Source of the DNA: Leptolyngbyaceae cyanobacterium
GTDB lineage: Bacteria; Cyanobacteriota; Cyanobacteriia; Phormidesmidales; Phormidesmidaceae
Reading direction: 5' to 3'
Assembly (NCBI GenBank): GCA_965263355.1
Contig: CBDHHL010000056.1
Span: 1,024,001-1,088,000, forward strand
DNA: 64,000 bases
Shown: positions 7,668 to 16,142 of the stretch, piece by piece
How the letters are laid out: each line of letters starts with the position of its first letter
Numbering within the stretch: the first letter of the stretch is position 1
The notes under the pieces: generated by a model
Told to the model about the DNA's origin: nothing
Database searches by the model: none
The model's input: the letters and a program-made list of their open reading frames with translations, nothing else
Position numbers and translations under genes: made by a program

Positions 7668-8207
7668 TTGGACTCCGAGGGCTTAGCCATGACATTACAA
7701 CCGTATAAGCACGTATTGCCCAAACATCGACCCATCGTCCTCTTTTCCAAAAATTACCTTCCCATGGCGCGAATTAATTTGAAGCGAGCAACGGTTCTTT
7801 TAGTAACAGGTCGGGCAGAACCTGTAGATCTAATCGGGAAAACCTGGCAGATGCGATCGCCCAGCCTAACCCTTGAGATTCCTGAGCATATTCGTCTGCG
7901 GGCTGGGGATAGCGATCGCATCTGGAAGACGCCACCGGTTAATCGTCGCGAAGTCCTGCGGCGCGATGGCCATACTTGTCAATATTGCGGTAGCAAGCGG
8001 CAGCTCACGCTGGATCATGTGGTGCCGCGATCGCAAAGTGGCTCTCACACGTGGGATAACGTGGTTACCGCGTGCGCCCCCTGCAATGCCCGCAAAGGGG
8101 CCTTTACCCCTGAGGTTGCCAATATGCAGCTCAGGCGACGCCCCAAAGCGCCTATGCATCCAGTTGTCGCTTTTGCAAAAAATTTCTGGAAAGAGCAGAA
8201 GATTTAA
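7668..8207 (+). CDS. HNH endonuclease (McrA-like; start probably ATG 7689)
   Basis: RREVLRRDGHTCQYCG...LTLDHVVPRSQSG..TWDNVVTACAPCNARKG. Confidence 0.9.
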   Translation: MDSEGLAMTLQPYKHVLPKHRPIVLFSKNYLPMARINLKRATVLLVTGRAEPVDLIGKTWQMRSPSLTLEIPEHIRLRAGDSDRIWKTPPVNRREVLRRDGHTCQYCGSKRQLTLDHVVPRSQSGSHTWDNVVTACAPCNARKGAFTPEVANMQLRRRPKAPMHPVVAFAKNFWKEQKI

Positions 8208-8263
8208 TAGTTTGTGCCGCCGTCGGCATGTGATTGCCCTACTATCCATGGAGATTGTCAGCC

Positions 8264-8650
8264 GTGTTAAAGCTGAACTATAACGATTTCGGCTTATTCC
8301 TTGAACGGGTACCTATATCGTGGGAAACAGTTGCTAATCAGCGAGTCATATTAGCGATGCGCTCTGGTGAGCCCTTGCATCTAGACCCTAGCTGGGCTTC
8401 CTTTTTGTTACCTGTTGAATTATCTGGTGTTACTCGGCTTAAGTGCTTGCTACGGAAATATTCAGCAGATGCGATCGCACTAACCAAAGTTGACGATGAA
8501 TTTGTTGAAGTCAGCCTGAAAGGGATTTGGATGGCGAGTAGCGTTAACGCTGAATCTGGCACCTTTATTACTGCCCTTGCCTCTGAAAGCGAAATGTTAA
8601 TCTATGAACTGTGGCAAGCGACCCAACGACAGAATGCATATTTTGTATAA
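8264..8650 (+). CDS. Conserved cyanobacterial protein, alr0857-like family
   Basis: From GTG 8264: LKLNYND.G.FLER...RVILAMRSGE.LHLDPSWASFLLP...GIWMAS...ESGTFI; recalled resemblance to the family that follows HNH genes in cyanobacteria. Confidence 0.65.
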   Translation: MLKLNYNDFGLFLERVPISWETVANQRVILAMRSGEPLHLDPSWASFLLPVELSGVTRLKCLLRKYSADAIALTKVDDEFVEVSLKGIWMASSVNAESGTFITALASESEMLIYELWQATQRQNAYFV

Positions 8651-9656: not shown

Positions 9657-9730
9657 GGGGGTGTAACTCAGTGGTCTAGAGTGCCTGTCTGTCGAACAGG
9701 AAGTCGCGAGTTCAAATCTCGTCACCCCCG
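9657..9730 (+). tRNA. trnD: tRNA-Asp(GTC)
   Basis: GGGGGTG/CACCCCC acceptor; CCTGT-CT GTC GA-ACAGG; T-loop TTCAAAT. Confidence 0.9.
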
Positions 9731-9736
9731 CCTTAT

Positions 9737-9813
9737 AGCCTTGTGGGCGATTAGATAAGCCGCTATGGTTCTCAGCCATAGAGAAGCGGGTGCAACTCCC
9801 GTCAGGGCTCCCA
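9737..9813 (+). tRNA. trnE: Non-canonical tRNA, anticodon CTC (Glu), CCA encoded
   Basis: AGCCTTG/CAGGGCT acceptor; TATGG-TT CTC AG-CCATA; T-loop TGCAACT; atypical D arm. Confidence 0.55.
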
Positions 9814-9885
9814 AAGTTAACTCATGTCGAAGCTGTAGACGCTCTGGAGAAGAAACTTCAGGTTTGTAGCTTGGACATGGTTTAA

Positions 9886-9963
9886 GTCCAGGTAGCCAAG
9901 TTGGTTTAAGGCGTCGGTCTGCAAAACCGAAAATCGTGGGTTCAACTCCCACCCTGGATTCCA
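9886..9963 (+). tRNA. trnC: tRNA-Cys(GCA), CCA encoded
   Basis: GTCCAGG/CCTGGAT; TCGGT-CT GCA AA-ACCGA; U discriminator. Confidence 0.9.
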
Positions 9964-9965
9964 TT

Positions 9966-10037
9966 GCAGAGATGGTGTAACGGTTAGCACCTCGGTCTCC
10001 AAAACCGATGATCTGGGTTCGAATCCTAGTCTCTGTG
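9966..10037 (+). tRNA. trnW: tRNA-Trp(CCA)
   Basis: GCAGAGA/TCTCTGT; TCGGT-CT CCA AA-ACCGA; TTCGAAT. Confidence 0.9.
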
Positions 10038-10097
10038 TTCTGTTGTAGGTCTTCTGCAACAGAAACTTGTCTGTACCGTATCCCCATAGAAAAAGCT

Positions 10098-10170
10098 TAC
10101 ATACTAGCTCAGTTGGTAGAGCATCTGTTTGCAGAACAGACTGTCGCAGGTTCAATTCCTGTCGTATCAC
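10098..10170 (+). pseudogene. Degenerate tRNA (anticodon loop TT GCA GA) with broken acceptor stem
   Basis: D arm (TAGCTCAGTTGGTAGAGC), anticodon arm and T arm intact; acceptor strands do not pair. Confidence 0.7.
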
Positions 10171-10274
10171 GCTTATCCACATCCAGAACTGATGTGTTTT
10201 CCAAAGAAAGCGCTAGGTTTTAACTTGGATGTGGTTGGCACAACGCTTTTTCAACTTATACGGCACAGGCTTTT

Positions 10275-10313
10275 GGTGGCGTAGGCAAATTGGTAAAGCC
10301 ACACGGCTTTCAA
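10275..10313 (+). pseudogene. 5' half of a tRNA-Glu(TTC)
   Basis: GGTGGCG-TA-GGCAAATTGGTAAAGCC-A-CACGG-CT TTC AA, then no 3' half. Confidence 0.6.
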
Positions 10314-10332
10314 TTCTCACCCGACCCTCCTT

Positions 10333-10423
10333 GGAGAGATCGCCATTGGTAAAGCAAACTGCCTGCTAAGCAGTCGTGAGATAGCAAATCTCACTATGGG
10401 TTCGACTCCCATTCTCTCCTCCA
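10333..10423 (+). tRNA. trnS: tRNA-Ser(GCT), long variable arm, unusual short D arm, CCA encoded
   Basis: GGAGAGA/TCTCTCC; ACTGC-CT GCT AA-GCAGT; variable stem GTGAGA/TCTCAC. Confidence 0.85.
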
Positions 10424-10518
10424 GAGAACATGGTATAACCGAATAACACAGTTGAAACCTGTAGTTTTCTCGACGGTCAAAAATAGTTCTAGACGTGGAA
10501 ATGGTTTACACAGAAAAT

Positions 10519-10593
10519 CCCCTGGTAGCTCAGTCAGGTAAGAGCGCTTGTCTGAAAAACAAGAGGTCATCCGTTCAAATCGGATCTGGGGGA
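10519..10593 (+). tRNA. trnF: tRNA-Phe(GAA)
   Basis: CCCCTGG/CTGGGGG; CTTGT-CT GAA AA-ACAAG; TTCAAAT. Confidence 0.9.
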
Positions 10594-10618
10594 CTTGCAC
10601 TCACTGATGAGTGCTCAA

Positions 10619-10694
10619 TGGGGTGTAGTTCAATTGGCAGAGCGCCTGGTTGTTACCCAGGAAGTTAGAGGTTCGACTCCTCTCGCCCCAGCCA
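10619..10694 (+). tRNA. trnN: tRNA-Asn(GTT), CCA encoded
   Basis: TGGGGTG/CGCCCCA; CCTGG-TT GTT AC-CCAGG. Confidence 0.9.
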
Positions 10695-10699
10695 TTTAT

Positions 10700-10775
10700 T
10701 GCCGAGTGGACGAATTAGCAAGTCGCCTGACTCTGAATCAGGAGATTGTAGGTGCAAATCCTACCTCGGCATCCA
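10700..10775 (+). tRNA. trnQ: tRNA-Gln(CTG), CCA encoded
   Basis: TGCCGAG/CTCGGCA; CCTGA-CT CTG AA-TCAGG; T-loop TGCAAAT. Confidence 0.85.
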
Positions 10776-10776
10776 A

Positions 10777-10850
10777 TCCCCTGTGGTGCAATTGGCAGTT
10801 CACGTCCGATTTTGGATCGGAAAATCTAGGTTCAAATCCTAGCGGGGGAG
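10777..10850 (+). tRNA. trnQ: tRNA-Gln(TTG)
   Basis: TCCCCTG/CGGGGGA; TCCGA-TT TTG GA-TCGGA. Confidence 0.85.
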
Positions 10851-10864
10851 TTGGAGTACCAAAT

Positions 10865-10941
<77 letters not shown>

Positions 10942-10944
10942 AAT

Positions 10945-11068
10945 CGGGATGTAATTCAGTGGTCAGAGGCCTTGTTTGCAATTGGTAGACATGCCGTGCT
11001 CAGAACGCGGTTGCTGTGGGTAACTCCTAGCGGAGACGCTTCGCGAACGAATCTCTGGCGACCCACCA
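10945..11068 (+). pseudogene. Chimeric pseudo-tRNA: 5' part of a tRNA-Pro fused to a tRNA-Leu(CAG) remnant whose T-loop carries a small repeat insertion
   Basis: CGGGATGTAATTCAGTGGTCAGAG (Pro-like) joined to GCAATTGGTAGACATG-CCGTG CT CAG AA CGCGG-...GTGGGT[26 nt]CGAAT...ACCA. Confidence 0.7.
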
Positions 11069-11108
11069 AATACCTCACCTATACAACCCATGGACTTTTA
11101 AGTCCCTT

Positions 11109-11182
11109 GCCCCTGTGATGCAATTGGTAGACATGATCCGCTTAAAACGGATTTGTTGCAGGTTCGACTCCTGTCAGGGGTA
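11109..11182 (+). tRNA. trnL: tRNA-Leu(TAA), intronless, short variable loop
   Basis: GCCCCTG/CAGGGGT; ATCCG-CT TAA AA-CGGAT; 5-nt variable region. Confidence 0.85.
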
Positions 11183-11229
11183 TGGCAGTAATGCCAATAA
11201 AAACAAATTTGCAAAAGGAGGTGAATCCG

Positions 11230-11688
11230 ATGAAACTTGCAGAGGCCCTAATGCAACGGGCAGATTGTCAGAAGAGAATCGCTCAGTTGCGTCAGCGATT
11301 GACGCGCAGCGCCAAGGTCCAGGAGGGCGAACAGCCTCCCGAGAATCCTCAAGAGCTGTTGTCAGAGGTGGATACTGCAGTTGCTGAACTTACGCATTTG
11401 GTGCAGCGGATTAATCAGACTAATGCTAGTACAGCATTGGCTGATGGTTCTTTATCAGATGCCCTGGCTCAGCGGGATACTCTATTCACTAAGCGAAGTG
11501 TTTTGGAAAACTTAATCCAAGCTGCATCCATTACCCATGATCGGTACAGCCGTTCGGAGGTAAGATTTGTAAGTACGGTGGATATTGGCAGTCTACAGCG
11601 TCAGTTAGACGATATCTCACGAGACTATCGTTTGCTAGATGCACAGATTCAATCGCTAAACTGGCAGATTGACCTAATAGGTAGTTAA
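11230..11688 (+). CDS. DIP1984-family coiled-coil protein
   Basis: RBS AGGAGG; MKLAEAL.QRAD.QKRI.QLRQRL...AKVQEGE.PPENP.ELL...RYSRSEV.FVSTVD...IQSLNW.IDL. Confidence 0.85.
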   Translation: MKLAEALMQRADCQKRIAQLRQRLTRSAKVQEGEQPPENPQELLSEVDTAVAELTHLVQRINQTNASTALADGSLSDALAQRDTLFTKRSVLENLIQAASITHDRYSRSEVRFVSTVDIGSLQRQLDDISRDYRLLDAQIQSLNWQIDLIGS

Positions 11689-11692
11689 AACA

Positions 11693-11918
11693 AATAGTCG
11701 GTAGCTAAATTCAACAGAAGCGAACACAACCCGCCAACTGGGCAAGTTGGGAAATGTCGTATACTAAACGACCCTTGGATGCGCTGGGGCAGGGCAAATG
11801 GGTTCGACTCCCGTTTATAAATTACGCCCAGCATTGTGACAGGTGCACATCATACTGTGATTGCTTACTACCCTGTGTTGATCGGTTGAATTTAGTGAGG
11901 GTGGGTTCGGGGACTATT
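11693..11918 (+). ncRNA. Putative structured RNA directly downstream of the DIP1984 gene
   Basis: Nested stems AATAGTC/GACTATT, CTAAATTCAAC/GTTGAATTTAG, AACAC/GTGTT, GCTGGG/CCCAGC; internal T-arm-like hairpin AAATGGG-TTCGACT-CCCGTTT. Confidence 0.6.
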
Positions 11919-11965
11919 GCTGGTGTAGCTCAATTGGCAGAACAACTGTCTTGTTAGGACTACCA
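11919..11965 (+). pseudogene. Internally deleted tRNA-Thr(TGT)
   Basis: GCTGGTGTAGCTCAATTGGCAGAACA-ACTGT CT TGT TA, then jumps to CTACCA. Confidence 0.65.
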
Positions 11966-11968
11966 CTT

Positions 11969-12043
11969 GCCTCTATAGCTCAACGGACTCAGAGCAGCGC
12001 CCTTCGAAGGCGACGGTTCCAGGTTCGAATCCTGGTAGAGGTG
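11969..12043 (+). tRNA. trnR: tRNA-Arg(TCG)
   Basis: GCCTCTA/TAGAGGT; CGCC-CT TCG AA-GGCG; TTCGAAT. Confidence 0.85.
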
Positions 12044-12101
12044 CTTGTTATTAATCAGTAAGGAGGTTGTTTTCATTGAAGCTTATGTTATTTAGTTTTA
12101 A

Positions 12102-12423
12102 GCCAGGATCGTAATGCGTGCCCTCACGGTTAGAGCCTACATACTTTAAGTACGAGAGGAACAGTAACACCAAAACGGTGTGCGTTTGCAAACAGGGATC
12201 GCGAAGAATCTGAAAGGTTGGCTTTAAAGTAGCCATCCTCTAAGGAGTGTGTTAAAACTCATCATTGGAGCCCCCTTAGTAGCTGAGAAAACGCTATGCT
12301 CTAAATACTTGCACGACATTGGGAATCCTGGTCATTGGCCTTGATGTATACAGAGAGAACAACATCGGGGAGCCTAGGCAGGACTTCGGCGTAAGCTCAG
12401 TCGAACGCACGAGGCGATTACCC
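12102..12423 (+). ncRNA. Large structured RNA carrying 23S rRNA sarcin-ricin-loop and L11-binding (H43-H44) mimics
   Basis: AGTACGAGAGGAAC at 12149-12162; GGTTGGCTTTAAAGTAGCCATCCTCTAAGGAGTGTGTTAAAACTCA at 12216-12261; closing helices CCAGGAT/ATCCTGG, AATGCGTGC/GCACG-A-CATT, TAGAGC/GCTCTA; 3' boundary approximate. Confidence 0.7.
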
Positions 12424-12455
12424 TACAAGAATTGTCCAGATAAAATGGAGGTTTT

Positions 12456-12905
12456 ATGACGATTTATTTTTATAGCGATCGCAAAAAACCTTATGGGTGT
12501 TTCTCCAATTTTTCGAAGCATGGGGTATTGTTGAATGGTCGATGGTGGCCGACAACAGAACATTATTTCCAGGCTCAGAAATTTATAGACACCGATCCTG
12601 ATTGGGCTGACAAAATTGGTAATGCGAAAGCACCCAAGACTGCTGCAGTAATGGGTAGAGACCGAAGCCACCCTCTCCGTTCTGATTGGGAACAAGTCAA
12701 AGACGACATCATGCATCGAGCCGTGCTCACTAAGTTCCAAACCCATGCAGATATCCAAGCTATTTTGCTAGGGACTGGTGCCGAGCCAATCGTTGAAAAT
12801 GCCCCTGGAGATTACTATTGGGGCTGTGGTAAAGACGGTAGTGGTCTAAATAAATTAGGCCGAATTCTAGAAGCTGTGAGGGCAACAATTCGCGAAACAA
12901 TTTAA
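12456..12905 (+). CDS. NADAR (YbiA-like) N-glycosidase family protein
   Basis: YGCFSNFS, WPTTEHYFQAQKF, RSDWEQVKDDIM, KFQTH, D.YWGCGKDGSGLNKLGRIL. Confidence 0.9.
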   Translation: MTIYFYSDRKKPYGCFSNFSKHGVLLNGRWWPTTEHYFQAQKFIDTDPDWADKIGNAKAPKTAAVMGRDRSHPLRSDWEQVKDDIMHRAVLTKFQTHADIQAILLGTGAEPIVENAPGDYYWGCGKDGSGLNKLGRILEAVRATIRETI

Positions 12906-12908
12906 CAA

Positions 12909-12983
12909 GGGAGTGTCGCCTAAAGGATGGGCATCGATCTTCTAAATCGATCTGTGTAGGTTCAAATCCTACCACTCCTGCCA
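12909..12983 (+). tRNA. trnR: tRNA-Arg(TCT), CCA encoded
   Basis: GGGAGTG/CACTCCT; TCGAT-CT TCT AA-ATCGA. Confidence 0.9.
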
Positions 12984-12993
12984 ATCAAAAAAT

Positions 12994-13094
12994 GGGCCTG
13001 TAGCTTAACTGCGAAAGCATCTGCCTTGCAAGCAGAAAGATGTCGGTACTCTAGCGAGAAGGCTAACGCCTACGAAGCCGACCAGTGGCCACCA
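12994..13094 (+). pseudogene. tRNA-Ala(TGC) with a 25-nt small-repeat insertion in the T-loop and a distorted acceptor stem
   Basis: GGGCCTG...TCTGC-CT TGC AA-GCAGA...GTCGGT[ACTCTAGCGAGAAGGCTAACGCCTA]CGAAG-CCGAC-CAGTGGCC-ACCA. Confidence 0.75.
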
Positions 13095-13113
13095 AATAAT
13101 TTCTTTAACGCAT

Positions 13114-13191
13114 GTTGGCCGAATCCGAAGTGGACGAGGAGCTGGTCTGTGAAACCAGTGTTAGCGGGTTCAAGCCCCGTCGGTCAACCCA
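13114..13191 (+). tRNA. trnH: tRNA-His(GTG) with G-1, CCA encoded
   Basis: G-TTGGCCG/CGGTCAA-C; CTGGT-CT GTG AA-ACCAG. Confidence 0.9.
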
Positions 13192-13194
13192 ATT

Positions 13195-13581
<387 letters not shown>

Positions 13582-13606
13582 AGATTGCTAGATTTTTTCT
13601 CTTTTT

Positions 13607-13750
13607 TCCTGCGCCCTAACCTGTAAAGCATACACACTTTCGGCTTAAAAACCGGGAAAGTGCAAGTTCGAATCTCGCGAGACCGCCATCGGTCTGTAGC
13701 CCAATTGGTAGAGGCACCATGTAACTAAGGCTTTTCAAACTTGCGTGGGA
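13607..13750 (+). ncRNA. YrlA-type Y RNA (circularly permuted tRNA-like domain on a long closing stem)
   Basis: T arm GCAAG-TTCGAAT-CTCGC, acceptor hairpin AGACCG-CCAT-CGGTCT, then D arm TAGCCCAATTGGTAGAGGC; closed by TCCTGCGC/GCGTGGGA; TROVE gene about 1 kb downstream. Confidence 0.75.
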
Positions 13751-13768
13751 TTTTTATTAAGTTTGTAT

Positions 13769-14494
13769 ATGAGCGAACATCGACTGAGTGAAATTGTGAT
13801 TGAACGTCCCCGTGGTGGGATGCGTGTGAGTTCTAGAAAGCTGAAGGGACATCGAAAAGAACTGGAGCAGATTACGCGGGTAGCAACCGAAGATGGGTTG
13901 CTGAGTCCCTATTTGATTAAGCCCAGACGGAAGTCAAAGTGGTTATCAGATCATCTAGGGCCATTGCGTAAGTTGTTGCAGTCTCAAGTGGGTCAGCCCT
14001 GGGATCAGGTCTATAGTCGCCTGTGTCGCGATCTAAATCCTCGTACCATGGCTGGCCAGCATGTGATCGATCATCTCTGGGGTTATGTAGAACAGCATGT
14101 GGAGATCATTGATGGTTTACCCTATACCAAACAGAATCACTGGTATTGGCAAGGTGAACGACGTTCTTTATCGGACTACTATGGAACAAAGTTCTATGTG
14201 AATCCTGAGACAGGTTTACTGTGTGTGGCTCCTAACGTGTGTCGCAGACGAGAACCTGCCCCTCCTGAAGAGGTGATTCAGGTGAACACCTATGAACAGT
14301 ATCGTTGCATAGATCAGATTTGGTATTGCATCACTTTTGAGATATTACATTCACCATTTGCATGGGATGTGCTGTTCAAAGACACTCTTGATGCTAAAAA
14401 GGCTTTACAGTCCTATCGCCGTAAGATCTATGCTGCGAAGAAGCGTCAATGTGGAAAGCGAGACCTTAAAAAGATTCGTAGAATGTTGAAGTAA
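13769..14494 (+). CDS. Basic conserved hypothetical protein
   Basis: ATG 13769; IVIERPRGG...KWLSDHLGPLRKLLQSQVGQPWDQVYS...FYVNPETGLLC...YAAKKRQ; the track's upstream GTG start overlaps the Y RNA. Confidence 0.75.
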   Translation: MSEHRLSEIVIERPRGGMRVSSRKLKGHRKELEQITRVATEDGLLSPYLIKPRRKSKWLSDHLGPLRKLLQSQVGQPWDQVYSRLCRDLNPRTMAGQHVIDHLWGYVEQHVEIIDGLPYTKQNHWYWQGERRSLSDYYGTKFYVNPETGLLCVAPNVCRRREPAPPEEVIQVNTYEQYRCIDQIWYCITFEILHSPFAWDVLFKDTLDAKKALQSYRRKIYAAKKRQCGKRDLKKIRRMLK

Positions 14495-14496
14495 TT

Positions 14497-14674
14497 GGCA
14501 GTTGTTGCTGTGACCTAACTTAAAGAGCTTACATTCTCTACCAACCAAACAGGTGGTGTGCTGATTGGAGAGTCAGCACTGCAAACCCGGACCTTAGCGG
14601 GCGAAGTTATCTTATTGTCTTTTAGCAAACGATGACTTCATGCTCTTTTAACTCATGCAGCGGCAACATCTGCC
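14497..14674 (+). ncRNA. Second Y-RNA-like structured RNA immediately upstream of the TROVE gene
   Basis: GGCAGTTGTTGCTG/CAGCGGCAAC..TGCC and TAAAGAGC/GCTCTTTTA stems; three internal hairpins; shares CCTAAC, TACA and AACT internal-loop motifs with the 13607 RNA. Confidence 0.65.
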
Positions 14675-14684
14675 TCCTGATTAA

Positions 14685-16142
<1,458 letters not shown>

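Follow-up and report, generated by a model that had tools for sequence, protein, structure and literature searches.

A 64,000-nt stretch of contig CBDHHL010000056.1 from a Leptolyngbyaceae cyanobacterium (hereafter the window, meaning the whole stretch analyzed) contains a tRNA L-array that holds a structured RNA of about 205 nt, here called RNA-1. This RNA combines likenesses of two functional sites of 23S rRNA, the sarcin-ricin loop (SRL) and the GTPase-associated center (GAC), within a frame of helices that are not derived from rRNA. Downstream of it on the same strand are two further RNAs, RNA-2 and RNA-3, that share the scaffold formed by its paired ends, a conserved open reading frame (ORF) of 241 aa, and a gene predicted to code for a divergent Ro60-like protein (Table 1). 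We describe the likeness of RNA-1 to 23S rRNA, the family to which it belongs, and its association with the Ro60-like gene, and we propose that it is probably a Y-RNA-like RNA that displays a mimic of the ribosomal factor-binding site.

Table 1. Features of the RNA-1/Ro60-like locus, in order of position in the window
Feature	Position (nt)	Strand	Remarks
tRNA L-array holding RNA-1	9657..13281	+	RNA-1 lies between tRNA-Arg(tcg) at 11969-12044 and NADAR/tRNA-Arg(tct) at 12909-12983
RNA-1, whole rRNA-mimic RNA	12112..12322	+	About 205 nt and a few paired bases that flank it; model R1, 206.7 bits end to end
Scaffold, 5' half	12117..12136	+	P1 12117-12121, loop 12122-12127 (CCCYAA in the family), P2 12130-12136; also in 19 sibling RNAs
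SRL (H95)-like hairpin	12142..12166	+	Stem TAC/GTA 12142-12144/12164-12166; 13-mer AGTACGAGAGGAA at 12149-12161
Variable hairpin Pv, 3' of the SRL	12168..12180	+	Double changes in 5/5 pairs; 100% of cells paired
P3, enclosing the stalk-base arm	12182..12294	+	12182-12187/12289-12294; double changes in 2/6 pairs
H42-H43-H44-like arm (mimic of the uL10/uL11 stalk base, GAC)	12194..12276	+	Approximately E. coli 23S 1036-1118
Scaffold, 3' half	12298..12315	+	P2 12298-12304, loop ending in ACUU 12305-12310, P1 12311-12315
NADAR-domain ORF directly 3' of RNA-1	12456..12905	+	Pfam PF08719, E = 9e-39
RNA-2, sibling RNA	13605..13754	+	Same scaffold; T-arm-like and D-arm-like interior in YrlA order; R1 24.9 bits, E = 2.5e-7 in 3.4 kb
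Conserved 241-aa ORF between RNA-2 and RNA-3	13769..14494	+	Same position in Nostoc L005
RNA-3, sibling RNA	14504..14666	+	Weaker scaffold; interior neither tRNA nor rRNA; R1 22.4 bits, E = 1.3e-6; minimum free energy z score -3.9
Divergent Ro60-like gene	14706..16142	+	478 aa; predicted helical TROVE-like ring and vWA domain with DxSxS motif

The SRL-like part of RNA-1 is centered on AGTACGAGAGGAAC, an SRL-type 14-mer at 12149-12162 of the plus strand that is the sole match in the 64 kb even when one mismatch is allowed; in 100 dinucleotide shuffles it was never matched. In E. coli numbering, taken from the annotated K-12 23S gene (L061:760-3663), this block corresponds to 2654-2667 and is identical across 2654-2665, so that the equivalents of A2660 and G2661 are 12155 and 12156. 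The second module, at 12195-12290, can be aligned with positions 1036-1134 of the E. coli 23S, requiring two gaps of 1 nt, and thus covers H42 together with H43 and H44, the rRNA site of the stalk proteins. A sequence-only reading of the window had reported an SRL match here and a gapless alignment of the stretch that it quoted to H43-H44; both observations stand, and the similarity also takes in H42. We could likewise confirm its statement that the element is no simple rRNA fragment. Compared with the cyanobacterial reference 23S of Nostoc (L010:136-2968; RF02541, 2702.8 bits), homologs of RNA-1 align only at 1057-1126, with 75 to 80% identity and E values down to 2e-12, and, for the SRL, at 2586-2602, with no convincing match beyond these two modules along the Nostoc 23S. 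The order of the modules is the reverse of that in 23S, and whereas the SRL and H42-H44 are about 1.5 kb apart in 23S, in RNA-1 they are separated by about 30 to 50 nt in a junction that is not that of rRNA, the rest of 23S being absent. The Rfam model of the large-subunit (LSU) rRNA, RF02541, scores the GAC-like part of three homologs at 51 to 55 bits (gathering score, 50) and gives no LSU match for RNA-1 in the window even at E≤10.

Comparison of homologs delimits the conserved unit to 12112-12322, with BLAST homologs spanning positions 4 to 204 of the query. The longer span of 12102-12423 originally assigned to the element has to be shortened, as conservation stops at 12322; the segment 12323-12423 is without conservation in the homologs, and the minimum free energy fold over 12102-12423 has a z score of only -2.0. 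A scan with a two-motif pattern across 185,579 species genomes, one per prokaryotic species, recovered nine loci, of which five are cyanobacterial and homologous over about 200 nt. The remaining four (one from Elusimicrobiaceae and three from Trinickia/Paraburkholderia) were set aside as chance matches that have only the pattern in common and receive no score from R1, the covariance model that we built from the homologs and that fits RNA-1 along its whole length (Table 1). In 401 cyanobacterial genomes sampled evenly over the phylum, BLAST detected a match to RNA-1 in 41, near full length in 37; R1, run on 12 of the 401, added a full copy in genome G367 (127.9 bits), bringing near-full copies to 38 of the 401 genomes. 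Among mobile elements, a blastn search ("distant") with RNA-1 against 50,697 phage records had no match, the pattern scan of viral contigs gave 0 loci, and near-full copies in PLSDB are confined to two records, those of Kovacikia minuta (CP083583) and Dolichospermum flos-aquae (CP051207), the remaining plasmid records giving no match.

Analysis of an alignment of 34 distinct RNA-1 sequences (A2) revealed that the family adopts a closed junction in which P1 and P2 are followed by the SRL-like hairpin, a variable hairpin (Pv), and P3, which encloses the H42-H43-H44-like arm. The 13-mer AGTACGAGAGGAA is invariant in 34/34 aligned copies and exact in both copies outside the model (L044 and L045). 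With the structure written onto A2, 96 to 98% of cells are paired. Double changes occur at 19 to 20 of the 48 pairs. Shuffling (500 times) yields 7.3±1.5 and never reaches the observed number, and slid controls, in which partners are moved by one to three columns, retain only 2 to 5 such pairs. Double-change pairs are found in both P1 and P2, in P3 (C-G in place of U-A in 6 copies, G-C in place of U-A in 9), and in Pv, and the H42-like helices covary as well; the 3-bp stem of the SRL never varies and is hence outside the reach of covariation. The H44 hairpin can be drawn in two registers, an rRNA-like one that has one more double change (L002) and a C-G pair in L009 and the RNAalifold one that has four unpaired cells and no double change, yet more cells paired overall. 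Of the three nested non-rRNA helices that had been proposed to enclose both modules, all exist and covary, with the correction that the SRL is inside two of them (P1 and P2) and only the arm is inside three (P1, P2, and P3). That homologs would conserve both motifs is borne out by the SRL 13-mer, exact in 36 full copies, and by the covarying arm. Rfam searches returned nothing on RNA-1, either at the gathering score (whole window) or at E≤10 (11150-13400), and across the window only families of the tRNA clan attain their gathering scores; there is accordingly no full-length match to a described Rfam family. A consensus scan for promoters and terminators gave three promoter-like sites, against 10.2 expected from shuffles, and was not used as evidence. 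RNA-1 is a conserved structured RNA family, uncatalogued in Rfam, that shows strong signs of selection on two functional sites of rRNA.

The manner in which the GAC-like arm departs from rRNA is itself informative. The family consensus for the GAC core, 58 nt that correspond to E. coli 1051-1108, matches E. coli at 44/58 and Nostoc at 42/58 positions, the two rRNAs agreeing with each other at 47/58, and 26 of the 58 columns are invariant within the RNA-1 family; as in the 23S factor-binding center, the SRL is thus accompanied by a matching GAC core in which the helices are kept by compensatory changes. The A-U pair at 1054-1105 is replaced by G-C in 34/34 copies, a compensatory change that departs from both rRNAs. 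The C-G pair at 1092-1099 is replaced by U-A in 32/34, and the C at 1072 becomes U alongside. In the GAC tertiary fold, 1072 is in a base triple with the 1092-1099 pair, and C(C-G) and U(U-A) covary among real rRNAs; the states at 1072/1092/1099 across RNA-1 copies are UUA in 30, CUA in 2, CCG in 1, and UUG in 1. Unlike the Nostoc 23S, H43 of RNA-1 has the E. coli-type bases G1062, U1065, and U1078, and the arm is therefore no recent copy of the host 23S. The position equivalent to A1067, in contrast to the situation in 23S, is not fixed in the RNA-1 family: 26 of the 34 copies have A, 7 have G, and 1 has U. In the window copy, this position and the equivalent of A1095 are both U. Together, these observations weaken any reading specific to thiopeptides.

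RNA-1 is tightly linked to a protein-coding gene, the one at 14706-16142 in the window. Homologs of this Ro60-like gene are present in 47/401 genomes (E≤1e-10), namely, in 37/38 RNA-positive genomes versus 10/363 others (the covariance model copy of G367 included; both, 37; RNA only, 1; gene only, 10; neither, 353). RNA-1 and the gene share a contig in 21 of the 36 genomes in which BLAST located both; in each of the 21 they point in the same direction, at distances from 73 nt to 57 kb. In 11 of these genomes, the gene is upstream of RNA-1 with a gap of 73 nt to 3.2 kb, and in the other 10, mostly of the array type, it is 5 to 57 kb downstream; in the window it is downstream with a gap of 2.4 kb. 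At array-free loci, a homolog of the ORF at 14706-16142 is found upstream of RNA-1 on the same strand. In genomes G317 (locus L050) and G209, a decayed remnant of RNA-1 is found together with a fragmentary Ro60-like gene; the L050 remnant consists of only the 3' half of RNA-1 and lacks the SRL. These cases look like joint loss of the RNA and the gene. The sequence-only reading missed both this link to a divergent Ro60-like gene and the terminal stem common to RNA-1 and its tRNA-like siblings (see below).

The AlphaFold (AF2) model of the 478-aa product (pLDDT, 81; pTM, 0.69) places helices at residues 9 to 287 and an alpha/beta domain at 296 to 468, and the translation contains a DKSSS motif of the MIDAS type. 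In a Foldseek search of the PDB with this model, the top 12 matches are all Ro60, Rsr, or TROVE structures, including phage Ro60, with E values of 7e-13 to 1e-9 and TM scores of 0.58 to 0.67 over the full length; the rows below them match the vWA domain only. Because the model matches the structures of Ro60, Rsr, and phage Ro60, we read the protein, at the level of the predicted fold, as a divergent Ro60. Sequence comparisons give fainter signals: a profile of the family run against PDB sequences retrieved two TROVE-domain entries only (E = 0.031), and below the Pfam thresholds there is a match to VWA_2 (E = 0.022). A PDB search with the single sequence yielded only a row with an E value of 1.7, which we discarded as spurious. 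The family comprises more than 2,465 proteins, mostly cyanobacterial, that are annotated as hypothetical or vWA proteins. The other conserved ORF of the cassette, that of 241 aa, has 432 homologs at E≤1e-5, every named one of which is cyanobacterial. It has no Pfam or NCBIfam match, and structure searches offered no convincing relative (best Foldseek E value, 0.59; best VIA-align Z score, 5.0, with weak winged-helix-type rows over residues ~58 to 158 that are below the guidance of that tool). We regard its product as a candidate third component of the RNA/Ro60-like system.

The terminal stem of RNA-1 is not confined to the rRNA-mimicking family. Nineteen shorter matches to R1, of 22 to 36 bits and 74 to 190 nt, cover both ends of the model but leave out the part between them. 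They carry 5' CGYGCCCYAAY...AAGCYUACAUAC and 3' ACAGCUUU...ACUUGCRYG, i.e., the scaffold of RNA-1, and all 19 are located upstream of a Ro60-like gene on the same strand. Two of these sibling RNAs are those of the window; the others belong to genomes G281 (five), G295 (four), G375 (four), G283 (two), and G305 (two), all of which are Ro60-like positive and lack RNA-1. The interiors of most siblings are tRNA-like, with eight scoring 42 to 64 bits with the Rfam tRNA model, and two RNAs of sibling loci score 31 to 34 bits with the Rfam model of YrlA, below its gathering score of 69. Most have only 4 to 5 bp at the place of the acceptor stem or have the T arm ahead of the D arm, and three consist of only the scaffold, at 74 to 85 nt. 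RNA-2 in the window reaches 16.5 bits with YrlA (E = 3.5), which is not significant alone, and it has a positional counterpart in Nostoc at L005 9237-9382. The Nostoc locus repeats the cassette of the window as a whole (sibling RNA, 241-aa ORF, sibling RNA, and Ro60-like gene), with RNA-1 placed 73 nt downstream of the gene. ARAGORN and Rfam call the tRNA-like bodies of siblings as tRNAs with unusual anticodons ("SeC tca"; L005 8246-8373 and 9237-9382, L060 1553-1680, and L056 to L060 generally), and L005 9744-9816 is called as a "Pyl cta" tRNA. One sibling has a full 7-bp acceptor stem and the anticodon loop CUUAUAA. Genome annotation would miscall sibling RNAs as suppressor or rare tRNAs.

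These features invite comparison with the Y RNAs. Known bacterial Y RNAs, which a survey found to be few in cyanobacteria, are reported to be encoded beside the Ro60 gene, to hold the Ro60 site in a stem, and to mimic tRNA (PMC4201824). Like RNA-1 and its siblings, RNAs of the YrlA type (RF02553) stand beside a Ro60-type gene, often several to a locus; like RNA-1, they pair their 5' and 3' ends in a conserved stem, inside which is a module resembling one of the RNAs used in translation. The siblings furthermore share with YrlA a tRNA-like interior and weak YrlA scores (16.5 to 33.6 bits versus the gathering score of 69). Because RNA-1 is linked to the Ro60-like gene and shares its terminal stem with the tRNA-like siblings, we favor, with a probability of roughly 0.6, the reading that it is a Y-RNA-like RNA, predicted to bind the Ro60-like protein, whose effector module mimics the ribosomal factor-binding site. 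Under such a mechanism, the scaffold (P1, P2, and the loops within 5' CGYGCCCYAA and 3' ACUUGCRYG) would bind the Ro60-like ring, and the rRNA-mimicking module would capture a protein that normally recognizes the SRL and the GAC. The candidate ligands are a translational GTPase, the stalk proteins, or enzymes or toxins by which the SRL/GAC is attacked or repaired. RNA-1 might then tether the captured protein to Ro60, or titrate it, under conditions of translational stress. We suggest this recruiting or titrating role by analogy, because Y RNAs are reported to act as tethers and gates (PMC4201824).

The original "ribosome-in-pieces" work with oligoribonucleotides of the SRL and the thiostrepton region reportedly dates from 1997. 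Such oligoribonucleotides are reported to keep the binding of EF-G and IF2 in vitro, with isolated SRL RNA binding both IF2 and EF-G (PMC3496166), and the factor-binding center is described as a single unit with two parts that collaborate, the GTPase-associated region and the SRL (PMC2330231). As SRL and thiostrepton-region RNAs are thus reported to keep factor binding off the ribosome, the idea of a mimic is physically plausible. Those pieces are laboratory constructs and separate molecules, whereas RNA-1 is a natural, conserved, single RNA, whose binding of factors is putative. In the literature searched, supplements and subscription-only papers aside, there is no small RNA mimicking the SRL or GAC and no link of Ro60 or Y RNAs to cyanobacterial tRNA arrays; the main text of the study on L-arrays (PMC8421152) makes no mention of 23S, Ro60, TROVE, Y RNA, vWA, or Rsr, and the paper on the TrcR regulon (PMC10272220) makes none of 23S, sarcin, L11, or a mimic.

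Several observations weigh against assigning RNA-1 to a Y-RNA-type particle. Its interior is an SRL plus H42-H44 rather than a tRNA as in YrlA, its length of ~205 nt exceeds the 80 to 130 nt of described Y RNAs, and its stem, CGYGCCCYAA/ACUUGCRYG, differs from the published Ro-binding motif, which is GGUCCGA, or GNCGAAN0-1G in YrlA (PMC4201824). The Rfam Y_RNA and YrlA models find nothing on RNA-1 at E≤10. The protein partner, unlike known Ro60/Rsr, is so divergent that the Pfam TROVE model misses it, with no TROVE row on this ORF even at E≤10; its reading as a Ro60 draws on a predicted fold, and the Pfam vWA_Ro60 match is below threshold (E = 0.043; 14.2 bits versus the cut-off of 27.7). The linkage is also imperfect: RNA-1 and the Ro60-like gene are on different contigs in 15/36 genomes, a 185-kb contig of G002 that bears RNA-1 shows no match to the gene, 10 Ro60-like-positive genomes lack RNA-1, and the RNA-positive genome G088 has no detected Ro60-like gene. 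The p value of 2e-40 obtained from the BLAST-only table (both, 36; RNA only, 1; gene only, 11; neither, 353) comes from a plain Fisher test that ignores shared ancestry. Similarly, many rows of A2 are closely related, which inflates counts made per cell, and the per-pair counts are the safer ones. One RNA run contained 4% of the sampled words; its two contigs cover only the tRNA-like positions 11916-11948 and 12909-12983 and not 12112-12322, and this run supports no conclusion. Finally, the tRNA-like body at L060 1579-1650, with its full 7-bp acceptor stem, might be an authentic tRNA processed out of a precursor.

The genomic setting of RNA-1 offers hints as to when it might act. RNA-1 copies are found in tRNA arrays in 19/34 cases, and at 13/34 loci, the window included, they occupy the slot between tRNA-Arg(tcg) and tRNA-Arg(tct). 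The array setting named in the sequence-only reading therefore applies to part of the family only; the remaining 15/34 copies have no tRNA in the flanking DNA examined. Directly upstream of the array in the window are an HNH endonuclease ORF (7668-8207) and then an alr0857-family ORF (8234-8650). The corresponding Anabaena genes, alr0856/alr0857, appear in the list of the TrcR translational-stress regulon (PMC10272220), and translation inhibitors reportedly induce tRNA L-arrays together with adjoining genes (PMC8421152). Because L-arrays are reported to be inducible and an HNH/alr0857 pair precedes the array in the window, the setting of RNA-1 suggests that it may be expressed under translational stress. 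The NADAR ORF is found 3' of RNA-1 on the same strand, 103 to 166 nt away, at 4/34 loci (the window, L002, L031, and L043). An interbacterial toxin is reported to ADP-ribosylate H44 of the 23S GAC (PMC8661411), and a link between this toxin type and the NADAR ORF beside RNA-1 is speculative.

The array in the window has further members. A DUF6847/DIP1984-family ORF (11182-11688) lies within it 5' of RNA-1 and was not found in the DNA around other copies. Truncated or fragmentary tRNA-like sequences occur at 10105-10162, 11754-11957, and 12994-13051, e.g., a match to the tRNA model that lacks the T arm, and they suggest ongoing decay and rearrangement of array members. In the RNA-1-bearing tRNA array of a Spirulinaceae genome, one tRNA called by ARAGORN (L002 1615-1693) has an anticodon of four bases, cact. 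Beyond the cassette, the region 16756-63999 of the window is typical of the chromosome of a filamentous cyanobacterium, with two giant proteins with TPS domains, a polyketide synthase, a LanM-type lanthipeptide synthetase, a CHAT/TPR protein, and an ABC/HlyD exporter.

Among the alternatives to a Y-RNA-type particle, we consider it unlikely that RNA-1 is a free-standing decoy or sensor, the function proposed in the sequence-only reading, that by itself soaks up or reports agents acting on the GTPase center, with the Ro60-like protein uninvolved. The agents envisaged would be enzymes that cleave or depurinate the SRL, toxins that modify H44, thiopeptides, and free uL10/uL11. A role of this kind accords with the invariance of the toxin-targeted SRL bases and with the reported binding of IF2 and EF-G by isolated SRL RNA (PMC3496166); the location of 19/34 copies in arrays reported to be inducible by translation inhibitors (PMC8421152), the counterpart in the Anabaena TrcR stress regulon of the HNH/alr0857-type pair upstream of the window array (PMC10272220), and the NADAR ORF at 4/34 loci, seen beside the report of an H44-ADP-ribosylating toxin (PMC8661411), point in the same direction. 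It leaves unexplained why RNA-1 almost always co-occurs with the Ro60-like gene and is co-oriented with it and why it has a scaffold in common with the tRNA-like siblings, and 15/34 copies are outside arrays altogether; a decoy specific for thiopeptides additionally faces the variable A1067 equivalent and the U at the A1067 and A1095 equivalents of the window copy. A decoy can also be combined with the Y-RNA-type particle as a subcase, namely, as a Ro60-bound decoy. The main rival, which we judge quite improbable, sees the scaffold as a leader/trailer processing stem, like those of rRNA precursors, that is cut away to set free the RNA it encloses, which would be a genuine tRNA in the siblings and a piece resembling rRNA in RNA-1, so that the mature RNAs would not be Y-like at all. 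The 42 to 64 bits of eight sibling interiors with the Rfam tRNA model would fit such a cassette, as would the complete 7-bp acceptor stem and normal anticodon arm of at least one sibling. Against this, the scaffold is no plain duplex, having invariant unpaired internal-loop bases (CCCYAA and ACUU); the 4- to 5-bp acceptor or the T arm placed before the D arm in most siblings permits no normal tRNA; three siblings consist of nothing other than the scaffold; and the ordinary tRNAs of the arrays do without it. This view also gives no reason for the tight linkage to the Ro60-like gene.

The H42-H44 likeness raises the separate prospect of a ribosomal protein sponge or cis-regulator, in which the mimic binds free uL10/bL12/uL11 and thereby regulates a downstream gene or buffers the stalk proteins. 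Leaders of ribosomal protein operons, such as the L10 leader, provide the model for this, being non-ribosomal RNAs that copy the rRNA binding site of a protein and act in cis as 5' leaders. The arm indeed corresponds to the stalk-protein site of rRNA, and its helices have been kept by compensatory changes. Whereas those leaders are 5' of ribosomal protein operons, the 3' neighbor of RNA-1 is inconstant, being tRNA-Arg(tct), the NADAR ORF, or non-conserved DNA; at none of the loci examined is RNA-1 upstream of ribosomal protein genes, and no Rfam model of a ribosomal protein leader matches it. As the invariant SRL and the common scaffold would also go unexplained, we deem a sponge of this kind very unlikely. 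The idea that RNA-1 is decaying rRNA debris or a chance resemblance without function has virtually no chance of being correct: it has the sequence similarity itself in its favor and nothing further, and it is refuted by the conservation and covariation seen across the 36 full copies, in which the SRL is invariant. It is also at odds with the 0/100 shuffles that gave the 14-mer, the match of only two 23S pieces in reversed order, an H43 that is E. coli-like rather than Nostoc-like, the failure of the four non-cyanobacterial pattern matches to score with R1, and the presence in G001, which also has RNA-1, of a complete and separate 23S (2702.8 bits). A relationship to the GOLLD-type RNAs, as suggested in the sequence-only reading, found no support, in that Rfam has no match on 12050-12460 at the gathering score or at E≤10. 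GOLLD and ROOL resemble RNA-1 in being structured noncoding RNAs that can stand among tRNA genes, while RNA-1 is much smaller and matches neither in Rfam. To our knowledge, rRNA mimicry has not been described for GOLLD or ROOL.

Returning to the Y-RNA-type particle, we tentatively extend it, at less than even odds, to a more general picture of a Ro60-type ring with interchangeable bait RNAs, mini tRNAs in the one case and a mini GTPase center in the other. Such a ring might constitute a surveillance or decoy particle that captures translational GTPases, stalk proteins, or else toxins and repair enzymes acting on tRNA, SRL, and GAC, coupled to RNA turnover or to the translational-stress response by which spare-tRNA arrays are switched on. 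In this picture, RNA-1 would be the first natural RNA to reproduce the ribosomal factor-binding site in a single molecule and the first Y RNA to mimic rRNA. If the Y-RNA-type assignment is true, Y RNAs would emerge as a modular platform that displays different parts of the translation apparatus, beyond the mimicry of tRNA. The Ro60 family would at the same time extend to a large cyanobacterial clade that has been missed by sequence models. RNA-1 offers a minimal system in which to study recognition of the SRL and GAC by GTPases, stalk proteins, thiopeptides, and toxins off the ribosome, and the locus provides a concrete connection, open to testing, of tRNA L-arrays with RNA repair or surveillance and with cyanobacterial translational stress.

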